From the NCBI GenBank assembly GCA_020849475.1, contig JADLGE010000071.1, positions 18,753 to 82,752 of the forward strand: a DNA stretch of 64,000 nt. The letters run 5' to 3'. Of this stretch, positions 21,315 to 31,588 are shown piece after piece. A program made the position numbers and the translations under genes. The DNA is from Gammaproteobacteria bacterium. Its GTDB lineage: Bacteria; Pseudomonadota; Gammaproteobacteria; Ga0077536. How positions within the stretch are numbered: position 1 is the stretch's first letter; every line of letters starts with the position of its first letter. The notes under the pieces were generated by a model that was not told the origin of the DNA, did no database searches, and worked only from the letters and a program-made list of their open reading frames with translations.

Positions 21315-22130
21315 TTGCCAAGCTTGCCGATGAAAGAGAGTCGAACACGAATGCTCTGGCAGCGAGAGATGCATCACCATGCGGATGGAGGCCGAGTGCT
21401 TCACGTCGCGCTGCCGGAAGGCTATGGGTCGCGTGCCGAGCCCTACCCGATGCTGGTGTGCCTCGATGCACAATGGACGCTCGGCACCGTGTGCGACGCG
21501 GCATTGAACCTCGGGCTCGCGCGGCTGCTGCCGAGGGTGATAGTCGTCGGTGTGGGCTGGGCAGCGCACACCGCTCGCGAGGTGGTGCATGCGCGGGCAC
21601 GGGACTTCACGCCGACGGTGGGGGCGCTGCCAGCCGCCGTCGTGCGTAACATGGCGGGCGCGCCGGTATTCGGCGAGGCGGCGCAGTTTCAGCGCTGGCT
21701 GCTGGACGATGCGCTGCCCGGCATCGAGTCGACGTATAACATCGATGTCACGCAACGCACGCTGATTGGCCATTCCCTGTCAGGCCTCTTTGCCCTCTAC
21801 ACGCTGCTCACGCAGCCACAGGCGTTTTCGCGCTGGCTCATCGCGAGCCCGTCGTCATGGTGGGACAAGCGCGCGGTATTCGAGCTCGAACAGCATAATC
21901 TCGCCCATGGACCGACGCTCGCAGGGCGCGTGTTCCTGTCCGCGGGTGAACTCGAGCAATGTATCGGCGGCGAGATTCCGATGCTGGCCAATACCGAGGA
22001 GTTTCATGCCCGGCTCGCGATGCGACGCTCCGAGTCGTTCGACACGGCGTTGCGCATCATGCCGGGTGAAATCCATCACTCGACCATGCCGGCCGCCGTC
22101 AGCCACGGGCTGCGCTGGCTGTTTAGCTGA
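21315..22130 (+). CDS. Alpha/beta hydrolase (putative esterase family)
   Basis: GHSLSG nucleophile-elbow motif. Confidence 0.75.
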   Translation: MPSLPMKESRTRMLWQREMHHHADGGRVLHVALPEGYGSRAEPYPMLVCLDAQWTLGTVCDAALNLGLARLLPRVIVVGVGWAAHTAREVVHARARDFTPTVGALPAAVVRNMAGAPVFGEAAQFQRWLLDDALPGIESTYNIDVTQRTLIGHSLSGLFALYTLLTQPQAFSRWLIASPSSWWDKRAVFELEQHNLAHGPTLAGRVFLSAGELEQCIGGEIPMLANTEEFHARLAMRRSESFDTALRIMPGEIHHSTMPAAVSHGLRWLFS

Positions 22131-22255
22131 GGCGCGCCGTCAGGTTCTTGTGTCGTACAGGGCGGATCGCGCTCGCCGTATGGATACGGGATGGGTAGCA
22201 TGTCGCCCTTCATTCAATGCCGAACGCGGCAACGGTTCTCGAAAGGAGACAGGGC

Positions 22256-23446
22256 ATGACAGGACGAATGGGTTTCGGCATCTTTCTCGCGCCATTTCAT
22301 CGCGCCGGGGAAAATCCCACGCTGGCCATCGAGCGCGATCTCGAACTGGTCAAGCATCTCGACGGGCTGGGTTACGACGAGGCCTGGGTCGGCGAGCACC
22401 ATTCCGCCGGCACCGAGATCATCGCCTCTCCTGAGATCTTCATCGCCGCCGCCGCCGAGAGGACCAAACATATCCGCCTCGGCACCGGCGTCATCAGCGT
22501 CGGCTACCACAATCCGCTGTGGGTCGCCGAGCGCATCGTACAGCTCGATCACATGACCCGCGGCCGCTTCATGTTCGGCGCCGGCCCGGGCTCGCTGCCG
22601 ACCGACGCGCACATGATCGGTATCGAACAGTCGGAGACGCGCGACCTGCTCGAGCAGGGCTTCGACATCATCATGCACCTGCTCACCAGCGAAGAACCCA
22701 TCACCTTCAAGAACAGCCGCTGGGATCTGCGCGACGCGCAGCTGCATCTGCGTCCCTATTCGCAGCCGCTGTTCGACTGCGCGGTGGCGGCAGTCGCATC
22801 GCCATCGGGTGCGCGCCTGGCCGGCAAGCACGGTGTGGGCCTGTTGTCGCTGGGCGCGACCATGCAGGCTGGCTTCGACGCCCTCGCGCTGCACTGGAAC
22901 GTGATGGAGCAGCGCGCCGCGCAGTTCGGCAAGGTCGCCGACCGCGCCAAGTGGCGCCTGGTCGGCATGGTGCATTGCGCGGAAACGCGCGAGCAGGCGC
23001 GTGCCGACGTGCATTACGGCATCGCCCACTGGTTCCGCTATTTCCAGACCGTGGCGGGCTTGCCGCACATGGCACTGGAGGGCAACGAAGTCGATGAAAT
23101 GATCGACTATCTCATCGACTCCGGCAGCGGCTGCATCGGCACACCGGATGACGTGCGCGATCAGATCCAGCGGCTCTACGACCAGTCCAACGGCGGCTTC
23201 GGCACCTTTCTCATGCTCGCCCATGAATGGGCCAACACCCAGGCCACGCGGCGCAGCTATGAACTCATCGCCAAATACGTGATGCCGCAATTCCAGGGCC
23301 AGTCGCGCGGCACGCTGAACGCCGTCGATTACGCGCGCAATCTGCGCGAGAAGCTGCGCACCGAGCAGCAGGCGGCGCTCGACGCGATGACCGCCAAACA
23401 CACGGCGGAAATGCAGGCGCTGGAGAAGAAGAAGTCGGGCGGCTGA
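22256..23446 (+). CDS. LLM-class (luciferase-like) flavin-dependent monooxygenase/oxidoreductase
   Basis: Start ATG 22256 after AAAGGAG; luciferase-like TIM-barrel signatures. Confidence 0.85.
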   Translation: MTGRMGFGIFLAPFHRAGENPTLAIERDLELVKHLDGLGYDEAWVGEHHSAGTEIIASPEIFIAAAAERTKHIRLGTGVISVGYHNPLWVAERIVQLDHMTRGRFMFGAGPGSLPTDAHMIGIEQSETRDLLEQGFDIIMHLLTSEEPITFKNSRWDLRDAQLHLRPYSQPLFDCAVAAVASPSGARLAGKHGVGLLSLGATMQAGFDALALHWNVMEQRAAQFGKVADRAKWRLVGMVHCAETREQARADVHYGIAHWFRYFQTVAGLPHMALEGNEVDEMIDYLIDSGSGCIGTPDDVRDQIQRLYDQSNGGFGTFLMLAHEWANTQATRRSYELIAKYVMPQFQGQSRGTLNAVDYARNLREKLRTEQQAALDAMTAKHTAEMQALEKKKSGG

Positions 23447-23625
23447 GGGCGGCGGCGGTCGGGATTGAATCCGCGCGAGTCGCTCACTATGCTCGCAAAC
23501 AGTGTTTTCCCTGCTGGTCATGACTGCACGAACCCTGGCCATTTCTTAATGGCAAACTTCAGTACGGCCATGCAGGGGAACACCTCCCCCTTGCCCACCC
23601 GTCAGATCGGTTCTGGAGCACCTGC

Positions 23626-24519
23626 GTGAAGCACCCGGCGCGCGCGCTCATGGCGCTCGTCGTCATGTCGCTGCTGTGGGGCTATGGCTGGACGGCCATC
23701 AAGATAGGCCTGCTCGACGCGCCGCCGTTCAAGCTGACGGCGGTGCGCATGCTGGCGAGCGCGCTGTGCCTCATGGCGCTGCTGCCGCTGACCGGCAGGC
23801 CGCTGGCGCCACAACGGCTGCCGGAACTCACGCGCCTGGCGCTGGTGCAAACTTCGCTGCTGTTCACGCTGTCGACCTGGGCGGTCGCCCATGGCAGCGC
23901 CGGTCGTGTCGCCTTCATGGTCTACACCATGCCCTTCTTCACCCTGTTGCTGGCGTGGCCGCTGCTCGGCGAGCGTGTGCGCGGCGCGCAGTGGCTGGCG
24001 GTGGTGCTGGCCGCGGCGGGCCTCGTCGCGATCATTCAACCGTGGGCGCTGGGCGACACACTCGCGAGCAGCGTGCTCGGACTCGGCGGCGGCATGGCGT
24101 GGGCGGTGGGCGCCATCCTGGTGAAGCGGCTGCAGCGGCGTGCGCCAATGGACCTGTTATGCATGACGGCCTGGCAGATGCTGCTCGGTTGCGTGCCGCT
24201 CATGATCATCGCGCTGTGGGTGGATGAGCCCGCCATCGTGTGGTCGCCGCGATTCATCGGCATCCTCACCTTGATGGCGGTGGTGATCACGGCTTTCGGC
24301 TGGATGCTGTGGATGTATGCGCTCGACAACCTCGATACCGGCACTGCGGGACTCGCCACGCTCCTCACCCCCACCATCGCGATGGTCAGCTCGCACTACA
24401 CCTTTGGCGAACAGCCCGGCAGGCTCGAACTGCTCGGCATGGGTTTGATCACGCTGGCCTTGCTCAGTTTGAGCGGGCAGGGCTTGTGGAAACGCCGGGC
24501 CGCAATGGCGGCACTTTGA
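23626..24519 (+). CDS. DMT superfamily (EamA-like) transporter
   Basis: GTG start 7 nt after GGAG; ~10 predicted TM helices; two EamA-like repeats. Confidence 0.85.
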   Translation: MKHPARALMALVVMSLLWGYGWTAIKIGLLDAPPFKLTAVRMLASALCLMALLPLTGRPLAPQRLPELTRLALVQTSLLFTLSTWAVAHGSAGRVAFMVYTMPFFTLLLAWPLLGERVRGAQWLAVVLAAAGLVAIIQPWALGDTLASSVLGLGGGMAWAVGAILVKRLQRRAPMDLLCMTAWQMLLGCVPLMIIALWVDEPAIVWSPRFIGILTLMAVVITAFGWMLWMYALDNLDTGTAGLATLLTPTIAMVSSHYTFGEQPGRLELLGMGLITLALLSLSGQGLWKRRAAMAAL

Positions 24520-24768: not shown

Positions 24769-26022
24769 ATGTTCCGCGTTGTCGATTGCATTGCCCTCCA
24801 ACATGACCGCTCGCTATTGGTCATTGCCGGGCTCATCTGTCTGTTTGGTTCGGTGGCGACGGTGTTGTCCGCGCGCCGCCTCGATTCCCGTCACCACGCC
24901 TGGCGCTGGCGCGCGCTGGTCGCGGTGTGCGTGTCGTCCACGGTGTGGGCCACGCATTTCCTCGCCATGCTGGCCTACCGGCCGACCTTGTCGGTGGCGT
25001 TCGATCTGCCACAGACCGTGCTCTCGTATTTCATTGGTCTCATGGTGATGGGGCCGGCCCTGGTCAGCGCACGCTGCGTGCAGGGCCTGTGGTTACGGAT
25101 GCTGTGCGGCGTGGTGTTCGGCGCGGGCGTGGCGCTCATGCACTACCTTGGCATGGCGGCGGTGCAGGTCGCGGGCTTGCTGAGCTACGACGCGCCGCAG
25201 GTGGCGCTGTCGGTGATCTTGAGTTGCGCCGGCGGCGCCATGACGGTCAGCGCCCTGTTCGGGCCGCGCACCGCGAGCCGACGCCTGCTCGCCATCTTCG
25301 CGCTGGCGCTGACCATCCTCGCGCTGCATTTCACCGGCATGAGCGCTGTGAGCGTCAGTCTGAATTCCTTGCTGGCGCACACTGACAGCGCGCTGTCACG
25401 CCAGCTGCTGGTGATTGAAACCTGCATGGCCGCCGCCGCCGTGCTCGGCATCACACTGCTCGGCGCGCAGTTCGACGAGCACATGGCGCGCGCCCTGCGT
25501 GAAGAAGCGGCGCGTTTCCGCACGCTCGCCGACGGAGCCTTCGAAGGTCTCATCATCCACCGCGACGATACCATCGTCGATTACAACGCGGTGGCCTGCA
25601 CCCTGCTCGGCCACAGCACCTTGAACATGCCGTTCGCGTCGTTATTTCCCGATGGCCTCTTGCATGAGAGCGCGAACACCGCGGTCAAGACCGCCATGCA
25701 GCATCGCGATGGTCATCACATCGCGGTCGAGATCAATCGTCGGCCGATACACACCCGCACCCATGAATGGGCCGAGCTGGTGGCAATACGCGACCTCACC
25801 GCACAGCAGGCGGTCGAAGGCAAACTCGCCGAGGCCATGGAAAACCTCGGCGCCCTGCGCGCGCTGATCCCGATGTGCGCCTGGTGCAAACGCGTGCGCG
25901 ATGATGAAGGCTACTGGAACGCCGTCGATCACTATCTCAAGGAAGTGACCGGCAATGAGATCACTCATGGCATCTGCCCGACCTGCAGCGACAAGGAATT
26001 GGCGAGGCTCGGCCGTGGCTAG
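24769..26022 (+). CDS. Membrane MHYT-domain sensor with cytoplasmic PAS domain and C-terminal CxxC-x29-(H)GxCPxC module
   Basis: Three MHYT-like helices (ATHFLAML, MHYLGMAA, LHFTGMSA); PAS-like region; C-terminus IPMCAWCKRVRDDEGYWNAVDHYLKEVTGNEITHGICPTCSDKE; no GGDEF/EAL/HisKA/HTH. Confidence 0.8.
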   Translation: MFRVVDCIALQHDRSLLVIAGLICLFGSVATVLSARRLDSRHHAWRWRALVAVCVSSTVWATHFLAMLAYRPTLSVAFDLPQTVLSYFIGLMVMGPALVSARCVQGLWLRMLCGVVFGAGVALMHYLGMAAVQVAGLLSYDAPQVALSVILSCAGGAMTVSALFGPRTASRRLLAIFALALTILALHFTGMSAVSVSLNSLLAHTDSALSRQLLVIETCMAAAAVLGITLLGAQFDEHMARALREEAARFRTLADGAFEGLIIHRDDTIVDYNAVACTLLGHSTLNMPFASLFPDGLLHESANTAVKTAMQHRDGHHIAVEINRRPIHTRTHEWAELVAIRDLTAQQAVEGKLAEAMENLGALRALIPMCAWCKRVRDDEGYWNAVDHYLKEVTGNEITHGICPTCSDKELARLGRG

Positions 26023-26425
26023 CCCGGTGGTGCAGCACTCTGCGGACGGCGCTGAGTTCGGCTATGTCATCGACCGGCAGGCCGGTGTGCTGCGACAGAC
26101 CTGGCGCGGCACCGTGAGCAGTGGCGACGTCGGTGATTTCTGGAGGCAGCTGTTCCACGATCACCACACCCTCGCCCTCAGCCGGCACCTGGATGACCTG
26201 CGCGACTGCCGCTTCATGTTTTCCGGCAACGAGTGGCTGGAACTGGTGAAGAACTTCCTGGCGCCGGCGCCGCCCCATGCACGCTGGAAGGCGGCGTTCG
26301 TGGTCAACAGCTCGGAGATGTACGGGGTGCTGCGGCAGTTCATCGCCTATGCGGGGGATTTGGTCGAGGGCGAGATTTTTTATGAGATGGAGAGTGCGGA
26401 GGCGTGGTTGAGAGGGGAAGATTGA
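26015..26425 (+). CDS. Hypothetical protein translationally coupled to the MHYT sensor
   Basis: ORF in +1 frame relative to sensor; GTG at 26015 overlaps sensor stop (26020-26022) by 8 nt; ~136 aa, no recognised domain. Confidence 0.5.
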
Positions 26426-26475
26426 GTTGCCCGACAGGGTTGATTCGCCCGCGCTTGGGCGCGTGCTTTTAGGTA

Positions 26476-26552
26476 TGGCGCGCCCGACAGGATTCGAACC
26501 TGTGACCTCTGCCTTCGGAGGGCAGCACTCTATCCAGCTGAGCTACGGGCGC
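26476..26552 (-). tRNA. tRNA-Arg (anticodon CCG)
   Basis: Reverse complement gives GCGCCCGTAGCTCAGCTGGATAGAGTGCTGCCCTCCGAAGGCAGAGGTCACAGGTTCGAATCCTGTCGGGCGCGCCA; cloverleaf with 7-bp acceptor stem, T-loop GGTTCGAATCC, anticodon loop CT-CCG-AA, encoded CCA. Confidence 0.9.
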
Positions 26553-26845
26553 TTTGTGAGGCGTAAAGTATAACGGCATTCAGTGCTGTCGGTCGGCCCG
26601 ACAGGATTGATTCGCCCGCGCTCGAGCGCGTGCTCACCCCTGCGGGGCGTCGGCGCGCTGCGCCTCCGTCCAACATCGCTGCGCGATGTTGTCGAACCTG
26701 AGACCTCTGCCTTCGCCGGAAAGCACTCTATCGGGCTTGAGCGACGGGCGCTTTGTGAGGCGTGAAGTACAACGGCATTCAGTGCTGTCGGTCGGCCCGA
26801 CAGGATTGATTCGCCCACGCCTGGGCGCGTGCTCACCCCTGACCA
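26553..26845. repeat. ~190-bp tandem duplication downstream of tRNA-Arg containing a decayed tRNA copy
   Basis: Unit gggcgctttgtgaggcgtRaagtaYaacggcattcagtgctgtcggtcggcccgacaggattgattcgccc...gcgcgtgctcacccctg occurs at 26545-26640 and 26744-26842; a third partial copy lies at 26428-26470. Confidence 0.85.
26688..26751 (-). pseudogene. Degenerate tRNA-Arg fragment (pseudo-tRNA)
   Basis: gttgtcgaacctgagacctctgccttcgccggaaagcactctatcgggcttgagcgacgggcgc aligns with the functional tRNA at 26493-26552 but anticodon arm and D-arm are disrupted. Confidence 0.55.
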
Positions 26846-26986: not shown

Positions 26987-27871
26987 ATGAGCAATCAACA
27001 AGACGACTCGGTGTTCGTTAGAAATTTCTCCCTGGTGCTGCTGTTCCTGGTGGTGGTGGGCTTGACGGCCTTCGTATCGGCCAAGTTCGTCAACGGCGGC
27101 GCGCAGGATGAATACGGACCGAGAGGCAATGAAGCGGCCAATGTCGCGCCGGTAGGCGCGGTCAACACCGGCGGCGACGCGGTCGCCGTCGAAGGCGCCA
27201 AGACCGGCGCCGAAGTCGCCAGCACCGCCGCGCCGGCGGCCGCTGCGAGCAGCGACCCGGGCAAATCCACCTACGACAGCGTGTGCTTCGCCTGCCATGC
27301 GCAGGGCATCGCCGGCGCGCCCAAGTACGGCGATGTGGCAGCCTGGGAAAGCCGCGTCGCGCAGGGCCATGACACCCTGGTGCAGCACGCCCTCGCCGGC
27401 TTCACCGGCCAGGCCGGCATGATGCCGGCACGCGGCGGCAACCCGACCCTGACCGACGCCCAGGTCACGGCCGCGGTGGAATACATGATGGCCGCCGTCG
27501 GTGGCAAGAAGGATGGCGCCACAGCGCCGGCCGCGGCCCCCGCCGCCGAGCCTGCCGCCGCCGCACCAGCGGCTGCACCGGCCGCCGATGCCGCCGCAGC
27601 GCCGGCCGTGGCCGATGCGGGCAAGGGCAAGGCCACTTACGATGCGGTGTGCTTCGTGTGCCATACCCCGGGCGCCGCCGGCGCACCGAAGTTCGGCGAC
27701 AAGGCCGCCTGGGAGCCGCGCATCGCCAAGGGCATCGACGTCCTGCATGGCAGCGCCATCAACGGCTTCATGGGCAGCGCCGGCATGATGCCGCCCAAGG
27801 GTGGCCGTCCGGATCTGGCAGACGCGGATATCAAGGCCGCGGTCGACTACATGGTCGAAGCCGCCAAGTAA
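26987..27871 (+). CDS. Membrane-anchored diheme c-type cytochrome (cytochrome c5-like)
   Basis: N-terminal TM anchor, two CxxCH motifs (CFACH, CFVCH), Ala/Pro-rich linkers. Confidence 0.85.
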   Translation: MSNQQDDSVFVRNFSLVLLFLVVVGLTAFVSAKFVNGGAQDEYGPRGNEAANVAPVGAVNTGGDAVAVEGAKTGAEVASTAAPAAAASSDPGKSTYDSVCFACHAQGIAGAPKYGDVAAWESRVAQGHDTLVQHALAGFTGQAGMMPARGGNPTLTDAQVTAAVEYMMAAVGGKKDGATAPAAAPAAEPAAAAPAAAPAADAAAAPAVADAGKGKATYDAVCFVCHTPGAAGAPKFGDKAAWEPRIAKGIDVLHGSAINGFMGSAGMMPPKGGRPDLADADIKAAVDYMVEAAK

Positions 27872-27882
27872 GCTGCAACGAA

Positions 27883-27937
27883 AGAGGCCCTGCCCATCAC
27901 GCTGCGTGCGGCGTGATGGGCAGGGCCTCTTTTTTTG
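27883..27937. terminator. Bidirectional rho-independent terminator between convergent cytochrome c and uvrD
   Basis: agaggccctgcccatcac...gtgatgggcagggcctct 18-bp stem followed by ttttttt. Confidence 0.75.
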
Positions 27938-27964
27938 TGCGACGTTTTTGCGCTTGTGCCGCGC

Positions 27965-30142
27965 TCAGCCGCTCGCTTCCAGGTTGGCATAGGCCGCCAC
28001 CAGCCACTTCACACCGTCGGCTTCGAAGTTGACCTGCACCCGCGAGTGTTCGCCCTGGCCTTCCATGTGCAGCACCACGCCTTCGCCAAAGATCTTGTGA
28101 CGCACGCGCTGGCCGAGCTTCAAGCCATAGGCGTTGGCGCTCTGTTCCATGATGTGCCCTGAACCGCCGCTCACGCCGGTGCGGCCGGCACTGACGCGTC
28201 CACCGAGGCGCACTTCCTCCATCACTTCGCGCGGCAGTTCACGGATGAAGCGCGACGGCTGCGGGTAGAAATCCGCGCCGTGCAGGCGCCGTGATTCGGC
28301 GTAGGTGATGGTGAGTTTCTTCATGGCGCGCGTGATGCCGACGTAGCACAGGCGCCGCTCTTCCTCGAGTTGCACCGGGTCAGCCGCCGAGCGCATGTGC
28401 GGAAAGAGCCCCTCCTCCACGCCGACCAGAAACACCAGCGGAAACTCGAGCCCCTTGGCCGAATGCAAAGTCATGAGCTGCACGCAGTCGCTGTAGGCCT
28501 CGGCCTGACCATCACCGGATTCCAGCGCGGCGTGGGTGAGAAAAGCGGCGAGTATCGGGATCTCTTCGTCATCGATGGCGGGCTTGAAATCGCGTGCCGC
28601 GGTCACGAGTTCCTCAAGGTTCTCGATGCGGTCGAGGCCGCGCTCGCCCTTCTCCTTGCGGTAGTGCTCGATGAGCCCGGAATGCGCAATCACATGCTCG
28701 AGCAGTTCCGCCAGCGGCAGTTCGTTGACCGCGATGCTCATGCGATCGATGAGATCGAGAAAGCGCTGCAAAGCGCCGAGGGAGCGCGCCGACAGTTCCT
28801 TGTTATCGGTCAGACGGCGCGTCGCCTCCCACAGGGTGATGCGCTCGCGCCTGGCCACTTCGCGCAATTCATCGATGGAACGTTGACCGATACCGCGCGG
28901 CGGCACGTTGACGATGCGCTCGAAGGCGGCGTCGTCACCGCGTGAACTCGCGAGCCGCACATAGGCCAGCGCGTCCTTGATTTCGGCGCGCTCGTAAAAA
29001 CGAAAGCCGCCGTACACGCGATAGGGCAAGTCGGCCTGGCGCAGCGCATCTTCCAGCACGCGCGACTGCGCGCTGGTGCGATAGAGCATCGCGCATTCAG
29101 TGAGACGCCCGCCGTGGTCATGCCACAGGCGAATGCGGTCCACGCAGAAGCGCGCTTCGTCGAGATCGTTATAGGCCGCGTAAAGCGTGATGGGGTCGCC
29201 CTTGGCGCCGTCGGTCCACAGCTCCTTGCCGAGGCGAGAAGGATTGTTGGCGATGAGGGTATTGGCGGCCGACAGGATATTGCCCGTCGAGCGGTAGTTC
29301 TGCTCCAGGCGCACCAGTTCGTTGGCGGGGAAATCCTTGCGGAAATGCTGCATGTTCTCGACACGCGCGCCGCGCCAGCTGTAGATGGACTGGTCGTCGT
29401 CGCCAACCACGAAGATGTTGCCGTCATCGCCGACGAGATTCTTCAGCCACGCGTATTGAATGGCATTGGTGTCCTGGAACTCGTCCACCAGCACATGCCA
29501 GAAACGCTCGCGGTAATGGCGCAGGAGGCCAGGATGGGCCAGCCACAGCTCATGGGCGCGCAGCAGCATTTCAGCGAAATCGACCAGCCCGGCGCGCTGG
29601 CAGGCGTCTTCATAGGCGCGATAGATGTCGACCATGGTGTGCAGCGCGCCGTCGCCGTAATCGTCGACGTGCTGCGGGCGCTGGCCGTCGTCCTTGCGCG
29701 CATTGATGAACCACTGCGCCTCCTTGGCCGGCCATTCGTTGTCATCGAGATTGAGACCACGAATGACACGCTTGACCACGCGCAGCTGATCGTCCGAGTC
29801 GATGATCTGGAAATTGTCGGGCAGGTTGGCGTCGCGCGCATGGGCGCGCAGGATGCGATGGGCGATGTTGTGAAAGGTGCCGACCCACATGCCGCCGATG
29901 GGTCGGCCGGTCAGTTGCTCGATGCGGCCGCGCATTTCGGCGGCGGCCTTGTTGGTGAATGTCACCGCCAGGATGCCGAGCGGTGACGCCTGGCCGGTCT
30001 CGAGATACCAGGCGATGCGATGCACCAGCACGCGCGTCTTGCCGCTGCCGGCGCCGGCCAGCACCAGCACTTGATTGGCGTTGGAGGCAACCGCGTCACG
30101 CTGACGCTGATTGAGTTTGGCGAGGATGGGAGAATCGGTCAT
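27965..30142 (-). CDS. uvrD: DNA helicase II UvrD
   Basis: Walker A GAGSGKT, UvrD/Rep helicase motifs, UvrD-type C-terminal (GQRVRHKIFGEG...VKWLVAAYANLE); start at internal ATG MTDSPILAKLNQ (coordinate +/-1). Confidence 0.9.
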   Translation of the reverse strand: MTDSPILAKLNQRQRDAVASNANQVLVLAGAGSGKTRVLVHRIAWYLETGQASPLGILAVTFTNKAAAEMRGRIEQLTGRPIGGMWVGTFHNIAHRILRAHARDANLPDNFQIIDSDDQLRVVKRVIRGLNLDDNEWPAKEAQWFINARKDDGQRPQHVDDYGDGALHTMVDIYRAYEDACQRAGLVDFAEMLLRAHELWLAHPGLLRHYRERFWHVLVDEFQDTNAIQYAWLKNLVGDDGNIFVVGDDDQSIYSWRGARVENMQHFRKDFPANELVRLEQNYRSTGNILSAANTLIANNPSRLGKELWTDGAKGDPITLYAAYNDLDEARFCVDRIRLWHDHGGRLTECAMLYRTSAQSRVLEDALRQADLPYRVYGGFRFYERAEIKDALAYVRLASSRGDDAAFERIVNVPPRGIGQRSIDELREVARRERITLWEATRRLTDNKELSARSLGALQRFLDLIDRMSIAVNELPLAELLEHVIAHSGLIEHYRKEKGERGLDRIENLEELVTAARDFKPAIDDEEIPILAAFLTHAALESGDGQAEAYSDCVQLMTLHSAKGLEFPLVFLVGVEEGLFPHMRSAADPVQLEEERRLCYVGITRAMKKLTITYAESRRLHGADFYPQPSRFIRELPREVMEEVRLGGRVSAGRTGVSGGSGHIMEQSANAYGLKLGQRVRHKIFGEGVVLHMEGQGEHSRVQVNFEADGVKWLVAAYANLEASG

Positions 30143-30241
30143 CGGGGTTTGGGGCTTGAGGCACGCAAAGGCGGCTAGTTTAGGCCATTGCGCCACGCAT
30201 CGCCGATGGTGGGCCCGCGCGATATTTCTTAAAGTAGGGTC

Positions 30242-31588
30242 ATGAAGCAACACGACGCCATTGATTACAACCGCCCCGCCATTCTCGACGAACTCGCGGT
30301 GCGCACCCTGGATGAAGCCCGACGCGCCGGCGCCGAGGCCGTCGAAATCGGGTTAAGTGCCGGCGAAGGCCTGTCGGTGACGGTGCGCGGCGGCGCCTGC
30401 GAGACCGTCGAGCACGAGCGCGACAAGAGCCTCGGCGTGACCATCTACTTAGGGGGCCGCAAAGGCAGCGCCACCACTTCGGATTTTTCGGCGCAGGCAA
30501 TCAGCGAAACCATTCACGCCGCGCTGCGCATCGCCGAGGTCGCCGAGCCCGACCCCTATGCCGGCCTCGCGGCCGCCGAGTTCCTGGCCACGGATCTGCC
30601 CGATCTCGACCTCGATCATCCCTGGGACCTCGATGCCGAGAGCGCCATCGCGCTCGCCATCGAGTGTGAGAAGGTGGCGCGTGGCGTCGATGCGCGCATC
30701 AAGCAGTCCGACGGCTGCAGCGTGAATCGCTATCGCGGCAGCCGCGCCTATGCCAACAGCCACGGCTTCCACGCTGCCTATCGCGGCACGCGCCATGGCC
30801 TGTCGGCGGTGATGATCGCCGAGGACGGCGGCGGCATGCAGCGCGGCTACTGGTTCACCAGCGGTCGCGACGCCGCGCAGCTGGAAGACGCCGAAACCGT
30901 CGGACGCCTCGCCGCAGAACGCACGCTGGCCAAGCTCGGCGCACGCAAGATTGCCACCACCCGCCTGCCGGTTATCTACGAAGCGCGCATTGCCACCGGC
31001 CTGATTGGCCATGTGCTCGGCGCCATCAGCGGCGGCGCGCAGTATCGCCGCGCGTCCTTCCTGCTCGACGCGCTCGGCGAAACCATCTTGCCGGAATTCA
31101 TCACCGTCACCGAAGACCCCTTCCTGCCCGGCGCGCTCGGCAGCGCGGCCTTCGACGACGACGGAGTCGCCACCCGTCGCAAGACCATCATCGAGGCGGG
31201 CCGCCTCGACACCTATCTCCTGAGTGCCTATGCCGCGCGACGCCTCGGCCGCGCACCGACGGGCAATGCCGGCGGCGCACACAATCTTTTTGTCAGCCAC
31301 GGCGAACGCGCACTGGCCGACATCATCGCCGGTTTTGATCGCGCCCTGCTGGTGACGGACCTCATGGGCATGGGCGTCAACGGTGTGACCGGTGACTACT
31401 CACGCGGCGCGAGCGGCTTCCTCATTGAAGGAGGCGAAGTGGCCCACGCGGTCGAAGAGATCACCGTGGCCGGCAATCTCAAGAGCATGTTGAAAGACAT
31501 CCGCGAAATCGGCGCCGACGTCGAGACGCGCGGCACCGTGCATATCGGCTCGGTGGTGATCGGGGAGATGGCGGTGGCGGGGTCGTGA
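30242..31588 (+). CDS. pmbA: Metalloprotease PmbA (TldE)
   Basis: 448 aa PmbA/TldD family, divergent from uvrD. Confidence 0.9.
   Translation: MKQHDAIDYNRPAILDELAVRTLDEARRAGAEAVEIGLSAGEGLSVTVRGGACETVEHERDKSLGVTIYLGGRKGSATTSDFSAQAISETIHAALRIAEVAEPDPYAGLAAAEFLATDLPDLDLDHPWDLDAESAIALAIECEKVARGVDARIKQSDGCSVNRYRGSRAYANSHGFHAAYRGTRHGLSAVMIAEDGGGMQRGYWFTSGRDAAQLEDAETVGRLAAERTLAKLGARKIATTRLPVIYEARIATGLIGHVLGAISGGAQYRRASFLLDALGETILPEFITVTEDPFLPGALGSAAFDDDGVATRRKTIIEAGRLDTYLLSAYAARRLGRAPTGNAGGAHNLFVSHGERALADIIAGFDRALLVTDLMGMGVNGVTGDYSRGASGFLIEGGEVAHAVEEITVAGNLKSMLKDIREIGADVETRGTVHIGSVVIGEMAVAGS

Follow-up and report, generated by a model that had tools for sequence, protein, structure and literature searches.

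A four-cysteine C-terminal module on an MHYT membrane sensor, a candidate output domain recurring across bacterial phyla

The window analysed here is a stretch of 64,000 nucleotides (nt) from a Gammaproteobacteria bacterium (GenBank assembly GCA_020849475.1, contig JADLGE010000071.1, positions 18,753 to 82,752 of the forward strand). It holds a gene for a membrane sensor of the MHYT type whose C-terminal tail carries four cysteines, and an open reading frame (ORF) that begins within the last codons of that gene (Table 1; positions are those of the window). The sensor is identical (100% identity) to IT492_16845, annotated as a hypothetical protein in an NCBI metagenome-assembled genome of a Gammaproteobacteria bacterium. 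Its tail reads CAWCKRVRDDEGYWNAVDHYLKEVTGNEITHGICPTC, and in a motif scan this was the sole plausible instance of the Cys motif in the 64-kb window. An initial annotation, made from the letters of the DNA, had taken the two genes for a possible signalling module in which a zinc-ribbon-like tail passes its output to the protein encoded downstream. We find that the tail belongs to a family spread over many phyla and lies where output domains lie, and that the downstream gene accompanies it only in close relatives of this locus.

Table 1. Features of the sensor locus and its flanks, in window coordinates.
Feature	Position	Strand	Basis or remark
Sensor gene, 417 amino acids (three MHYT repeats, PAS-like domain, heptad helix, Cys4 tail)	24769..26022	+	ORF list, sequence
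MHYT integral-membrane region, residues ~37-239, three repeats	24877..25485	+	Pfam PF03707; NF038348 aligns residues 37-239
PAS-like domain, residues ~248-353, near threshold	25510..25827	+	PAS_8, PAS_4, TIGR00229; alignment with the PAS region of P0006
Heptad (leucine-zipper-like) signalling helix, entering the first Cys knuckle directly	25795..25875	+	AlphaFold2 model; family a/d positions
Cys4 core CxxC-x29-CPxC, residues 370-406, putative zinc-binding output module	25876..25986	+	Motif scan
Downstream ORF, 136 amino acids, SpoIIAA/STAS-like (DUF3478-type), lineage-confined	26015..26425	+	GTG start overlaps end of sensor gene by 8 nt
Terminator-like hairpin and T-run after downstream ORF, probable end of two-gene transcript	26446..26475	+	Hairpin at 26446-26461
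Dihaem cytochrome c	26987-27871		
UvrD/Rep-type helicase	within 21315-24519 and 26987-30253	-	Sequence motifs only
Esterase, luciferase-like monooxygenase and EamA transporter (flank genes)	21315-24519 and 26987-30253		Intervals given jointly for the five flanking genes of this table

The N-terminal part of the sensor belongs to the MHYT family, with matches to PF03707 in three stretches (E 9.7e-22, 77.2 bits against a cut-off of 21), and the motifs of the three repeats, HFLAM, HYLGM and HFTGM, can be read off the translation. The PAS models that match the following region do so under their cut-offs (PAS_8, E 2.6e-4 and 21.2 bits against 21.8; TIGR00229, E 1.1e-4 and 22.3 bits against 22.9; PAS_4, E 0.013 and 16.2 bits against 23.1), so that the originally described order of three MHYT repeats and a PAS-like region holds with a PAS assignment near threshold only; where the region lies, and its homology to MHYT relatives that have PAS, speak for a divergent domain of this type. 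The absence of a GGDEF, EAL, HisKA or DNA-binding output, also noted at first reading, was borne out: HisKA, HATPase, GGDEF, EAL, HD-GYP, MCP and helix-turn-helix (HTH) models of Pfam and NCBIfam gave no match in the 417-residue protein at E ≤ 1, and the last ~75 residues are covered by no model of either library. The four cysteines are where they had been placed, but the notation used for them, 'x29-(H)Gx', was slightly off; the exact spacing is CxxC-x29-CPxC, or CxxC-x26-HGxCPxC, with the His-Gly pair two positions ahead of the third Cys.

Few homologues match the sensor over its whole length (P0002 with 78% and P0003 with 44% identity; P0004 and P0005 are fragments), and two unrelated proteins, P0057 (MASE1-PAS) and P0053 (a multi-pass membrane protein), match it via the tail alone. 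Homologue P0006, 35% identical over 85% of the sensor, has a similar MHYT-PAS body and continues through a helix into GGDEF; thus, in the protein studied here, the tail takes the place of a GGDEF output. Further MHYT relatives of the sensor end in HisKA/HATPase, EAL or MCP.

A profile built from seven tails and run exhaustively against 1.84 billion cluster representatives matched 24,503 of them at E ≤ 1e-3 and 18,374 at E ≤ 1e-10, a recurrence that puts the motif far above chance; a word-indexed homologue search with the 75-residue tail alone returned one protein only, the query being too short for the index. The initial annotation had mentioned similar Cys-rich tails on otherwise unannotated PAS proteins, correctly, and their recurrence is far larger than was supposed there. 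The figures for position and span that follow refer to the 148 best-matching proteins that were new relative to the initial homologues (the other two listed rows being P0002 and P0005). Almost every one of the 148 has 37 residues from the first Cys to the last, and the module lies 8-35 residues from the C-terminus, except where a second, internal copy is present. Among 235 tails, conservation is 100% for the four Cys and for W14, 99% for P-1, 97% for R8, D10 and H31, 92% for Y20, 91% for G12, and 89% for E18, G32 and P35; twelve positions are conserved at 90% or more, and the family consensus is LxGLLPICAWCKKIRDDxGYWxxVExYIxxHSxAxFTHGICPxC. The 16 residues ahead of the tail form a clean a/d heptad throughout the family (L-16, A-13, L-12, V/I-9, L-6, L-2). 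The invariant polar and aromatic residues resemble, and thereby suggest, an interaction surface.

With eight tails as query and one genome per species, we confirmed at least 589 tail loci. The best 80 of these lie in Verrucomicrobiota, Nitrospirota, Desulfobacterota, Spirochaetota (including Leptospirales), Acidobacteriota and Chloroflexota, and further in Bacteroidota, Ignavibacteriae, Myxococcota, Gemmatimonadota, Chlamydiae and Gammaproteobacteria. One tail locus, L033 (CAZEPC010000028.1), comes from a bin labelled 'uncultured archaeon'; either the family has a rare member among the archaea or the sequence was binned wrongly. The tail locus L041 is from Desulfacinum infernum DSM 9756, and Leptospira and Geobacter probably encode the tail as well. 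A tblastn search of 72,556 plasmid records with the tail consensus gave one match, on a Dongshaea marina plasmid (NZ_CP028898.1, 36166-36303), at a place where no gene is listed. About 44 of the 148 best matches (P0066-P0106, ~500-550 amino acids, for example P0068, P0070 and P0073) have the module twice, once internally and once at the C-terminus; MASE6 is the commonest membrane domain among these proteins, and the internal copy often has ..VSSGxC.. in place of the His-Gly pair. The source names of ten family members are limited to 'response regulator', 'PAS domain S-box-containing protein' and 'hypothetical protein', and our literature searches returned no description of the module, HalOD2 (below) being the sole related item.

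Pfam architectures were determined for 147 representatives and for 80 genome-encoded host proteins. PAS is the commonest domain ahead of the tail, in company with the receiver domain REC, GAF, MASE6, MASE1, DUF4118, HAMP, Cache, PocR, CHASE3, Reg_prop/Y_Y_Y and MHYT; these N-terminal partners are of the input or transmitter kind throughout. Proteins in which REC precedes the tail make up 14 of the 147 representatives and 18 of the 80 host proteins, and they put the tail at the output position of a response regulator. The 25 commonest families of either set include no kinase, cyclase, phosphodiesterase or HTH family. Four proteins have the order PAS-PAS-tail-PilZ, PilZ being the sole domain that was seen to follow the tail, and this arrangement fits a regulated effector flanked by inputs; as PilZ is a receptor for cyclic di-GMP (c-di-GMP), these fusions hint that activity of the module can come under c-di-GMP control. 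Examples of this architecture are P0116, P0175, P0181 and the gene at L017:5068-6558. The C-terminal position after receiver or sensor domains, the kinds of domain that precede the tail, the exchange of GGDEF for tail between P0006 and the sensor, and a predicted coiled coil like that of signalling helices together place the tail where outputs sit.

In the AlphaFold2 model of the tail (predicted local distance difference test, pLDDT, 77) three helices alternate with two Cys knuckles, the first helix being long and the second knuckle lying at the N-terminal end of the last helix; the helix at tail residues 2-24 is modelled at pLDDT 90-94. This model has no significant structural neighbour, and the PDB holds no sequence relative of the tail. 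Ten isolated tails compared with Pfam at E ≤ 10 gave scattered zinc-ribbon matches below threshold, the best with E 0.004 and 17.6 bits against a cut-off of 34.4, and none of Zn_ribbon_8, DZR, zf-dskA_traR, Rubredoxin, zf-HC2 or the HalOD-type models matched a tail above its gathering score; thus the searches of Pfam and NCBIfam yielded no characterised output domain. DUF7558 reached E 3e-4, under its cut-off, in two of the 147 tail proteins. Three narrower identifications were considered and rejected. CAWCK as a CXXCK haem-c attachment site does not fit a cytoplasmic domain. A zinc-binding anti-sigma (ZAS) domain would have HxxxCxxC where the tail has HxxCxxC; the tail is moreover too short for one and gives no zf-HC2 match. 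The DksA/TraR finger differs in spacing and its profile gives no match. We read the tail as an unnamed output module, probably with bound zinc and presumably dimeric.

The downstream ORF starts, as initially described, at a GTG that overlaps the sensor's TAG stop (26020-26022) by 8 nt in both the ORF list and the sequence, and it runs for 136 codons; in P0216 (136 amino acids, 99% identity) gene callers use the same start. Its GC content by codon position (0.66/0.42/0.82) is close to that of the sensor (0.65/0.47/0.83), the differences among its homologues are enriched at third codon positions, and the homologous proteins keep 71-99% amino acid identity (70-76% in close relatives). On these sequence grounds the ORF is a real, conserved coding gene. 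Initially it was said to encode no recognisable domain, and indeed nothing is above cut-off; there is, however, a weak match to the SpoIIAA-like family PF11964 (15.1 bits against a cut-off of 25), and the predicted fold is of the STAS type (pLDDT 52).

The coupled expression that had been read from the overlap fares unevenly. The sensor and the downstream ORF are probably co-transcribed, since nothing like a terminator separates them and a hairpin of terminator type comes after the second. The overlap itself varies: the junction is GTGGCTAG in the window and GTGGCTGA in the related locus L004, with an overlapping GTG in both, and in L001 and L003 an 81-nt in-frame insertion leaves the frame open and gene callers start about 100 nt past the sensor stop, which suggests that the 8-nt overlap is not a fixed feature. 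A further possible start codon lies upstream of this junction. Within the sensor's HGICP codons, the CAT GGC of the conserved His-Gly pair contains an ATG (25967-25969) that is in frame with the downstream ORF. From there the frame is open into the downstream gene in the window, L001 and L004 (where ORFs are listed), and some callers accordingly put the start of the downstream protein inside the sensor gene (L004, 155 amino acids). The sequence of the N-terminal extension so created is not conserved.

We propose a model of the sensor that we consider evenly poised between right and wrong. The protein would be a membrane-embedded sensor of the one-component type whose six-helix MHYT region receives the signal; gas or metal sensing through the conserved His and Met residues of MHYT is a proposal only, with no experimentally established ligand. 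The signal would pass from MHYT to the cytoplasmic PAS-like domain and on through the conserved heptad helix to the Cys4 module of ~45 residues, which is predicted to bind one zinc ion and, as a pair, would be carried on the tip of a parallel coiled coil. A signal-dependent shift of helix register would then alter how the invariant, acidic and aromatic R-D-D-x-G-Y-W...E-x-Y...H-G surface is presented, and the target of the paired modules would most likely be a protein encoded elsewhere in the genome. The architecture, the size, conservation and position of the family and the lack of a known output domain and of a conserved neighbour are shown; that the tail binds zinc, forms dimers, serves as the output and acts on a protein is inferred. 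It might work by binding, in a zinc-dependent way gated by the coiled coil, to some conserved target in the cell whose gene lies elsewhere. With regard to the family, we suggest tentatively, and with a little less than even confidence, that heptad helix and Cys4 module together form a previously undescribed, phylum-spanning output domain of one- and two-component systems, with a mechanism unlike phosphotransfer, cyclase or phosphodiesterase activity, or HTH-type binding.

The signalling from tail to downstream protein that the initial annotation proposed would make the Cys4 tail a docking site for the co-expressed neighbour, in a dedicated two-protein module akin to partner switching. The downstream gene is conserved and probably co-transcribed with the sensor, but homologues of the downstream protein were found only in three close relatives of the locus (L001, L003 and L004). 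The gene is absent 3' of a 44% orthologue (L002) and of a 47% full-length orthologue (L006), and tblastn did not find the protein within 6 kb on either side of 80 other tail-bearing genes. The pairing in close relatives is explained without docking: in L003, where there is enough flanking DNA, the downstream cytochrome c is conserved too, and plain synteny accounts for both. The start called ~100 nt past the sensor stop in L001 and L003 also counts against docking, as does the neighbourhood, where an EamA transporter, a luciferase-like monooxygenase, a tRNA and the cytochrome c are present and a partner-switching kinase or phosphatase is not. All-versus-all clustering of 2,099 flanking ORFs from the 80 tail loci revealed a loose signalling cluster (PAS/REC/kinase) in 30 of the 80 and no specific partner family, and the same-strand neighbours of tail genes assigned by Pfam (64 downstream, 53 upstream) are heterogeneous, with a few REC and kinase genes and no STAS member among them. 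As there is no co-occurrence beyond close relatives and no recurring neighbour, no gene is conserved as operon partner of the tail. The dedicated module of tail and partner therefore appears largely unsupported as a general rule, and partner docking is to us distinctly unlikely; by these sequence comparisons the downstream ORF is a local neighbour and not the general partner of the module, although in this lineage the SpoIIAA-like gene may act in the sensor's pathway and its product could conceivably interact with the tail.

Two other readings concern the nature of the tail itself. It could be an input, namely a redox or metal sensor using thiols, zinc or a rubredoxin-like iron, or else a zinc-stabilised dimerisation cap with no signalling role. 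The four invariant Cys and a His conserved at 97% would suit either, the Fe(Cys)4 site of rubredoxin has the very spacing CxxC-x29-CPxC, and the weak sub-threshold matches are solely to generic zinc-ribbon and rubredoxin-like knuckle models. No match to rubredoxin or metal-sensor families is significant, however, and the predicted central helix is unlike rubredoxin; the invariant non-ligand residues R8, D10, G12, Y13, W14, E18 and Y20 exceed the needs of a structural metal site, and REC-tail and PAS-only proteins would be left without any output domain, all of which makes an input or cap unlikely in our estimation. The remaining reading, that the tail is a dimeric zinc-finger domain binding nucleic acid and that its hosts are membrane-tethered or soluble regulators of transcription or RNA, draws on the fact that in most one-component systems and response regulators the C-terminal domain binds DNA. 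A zinc module placed behind a coiled coil would, by analogy, resemble dimeric DNA-binding designs, and for HalOD2 binding of DNA or RNA has been predicted (PMC5847659). The core of the tail is nevertheless net acidic (mean charge -1.6 in 235 tails), many of the proteins that carry it span the membrane repeatedly (MHYT, MASE1, MASE6, DUF4118, Cache-HAMP), and no DNA-binding zinc-finger family matched above threshold; we hold nucleic-acid binding to be very unlikely. Our preferred interpretation thus stays with the tail as an output module that would act on a protein target.

None of the flanking genes has an evident functional link to the sensor, and the cytochrome c alone is syntenic in L003. 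Directly 3' of the downstream ORF a unit of ~199 nt is repeated three times in tandem (26429-26841), with one of its 23-mers observed three times against an expectation of 0. The unit holds an intact tRNA-Arg(CCG) on the minus strand (26476-26552), and the repeat region also contains a decayed partial copy of this tRNA (26692-26737, 85% identity). The terminator-like hairpin that follows the downstream ORF belongs to the repeat unit.

What merits pursuit at this locus is the tail, as a module that is very large in family size, sharply conserved, located at the output position and without an entry in the libraries and literature searched. Censuses of signalling proteins classify by output domain, and proteins with this tail, which go under names such as 'PAS domain S-box protein', 'response regulator' or 'hypothetical', seem to have none. 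If the Cys4 module is an output, tens of thousands of sensor and response-regulator families would gain a defined endpoint, in Nitrospirota, Verrucomicrobiota, Desulfobacterota, Leptospirales, Acidobacteriota, Chloroflexota and other phyla, and one identified target could explain all of the tail-bearing families; the PAS-PAS-tail-PilZ fusions suggest a tie to c-di-GMP control. For the locus itself, an MHYT sensor would gain a candidate output.

The sensor may be compared with several known systems. It has the three-repeat MHYT N-terminus in common with the MHYT signalling proteins (PF03707; MHYT-GGDEF-EAL, MHYT-histidine kinase and MHYT-PAS-MCP), and a PAS-like region follows MHYT as a PAS domain does in several homologues; those proteins end in GGDEF/EAL, HisKA/HATPase or MCP, whereas the sensor ends in the Cys4 module. 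The ligand and activity of MHYT were still unknown at the time of a 2022 review (PMC8846402). The downstream protein is comparable to the SpoIIAA-like/DUF3478 family (PF11964; PDB 2q3l), SiaC and SpoIIAA, from which it differs in having no cognate kinase or phosphatase nearby, the likeness of fold being taken from a low-pLDDT model. Zinc ribbons and treble-clef fingers (Zn_ribbon_8, the DksA/TraR C4 finger) are like the tail in their two CxxC knuckles, the second at the predicted N-terminus of a helix, and in the long helix that precedes them; profile matches to them range from E 0.004 to 2 and all fall under curated cut-offs, and the RDDxGYW / ExY / HG signature is specific to the tail family and not a property of generic zinc ribbons or treble clefs. 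The nearest described counterpart is HalOD2, an output domain of haloarchaeal response regulators with a helical part, two CXXC motifs and predicted zinc binding (Galperin et al. 2018, PMC5847659). Both HalOD2 and the tail are small C-terminal domains at the output position, in which a helical segment is followed by two Cys motifs. No Pfam family matches the tail, including any HalOD model in the library, and HalOD2 has 20-25 residues between its CXXC motifs where the tail has a fixed 29; moreover, HalOD2 is reported in few halobacteria and after REC only, while the tail follows many input domains across phyla. The resemblance between them is thus one of kind and not of membership.

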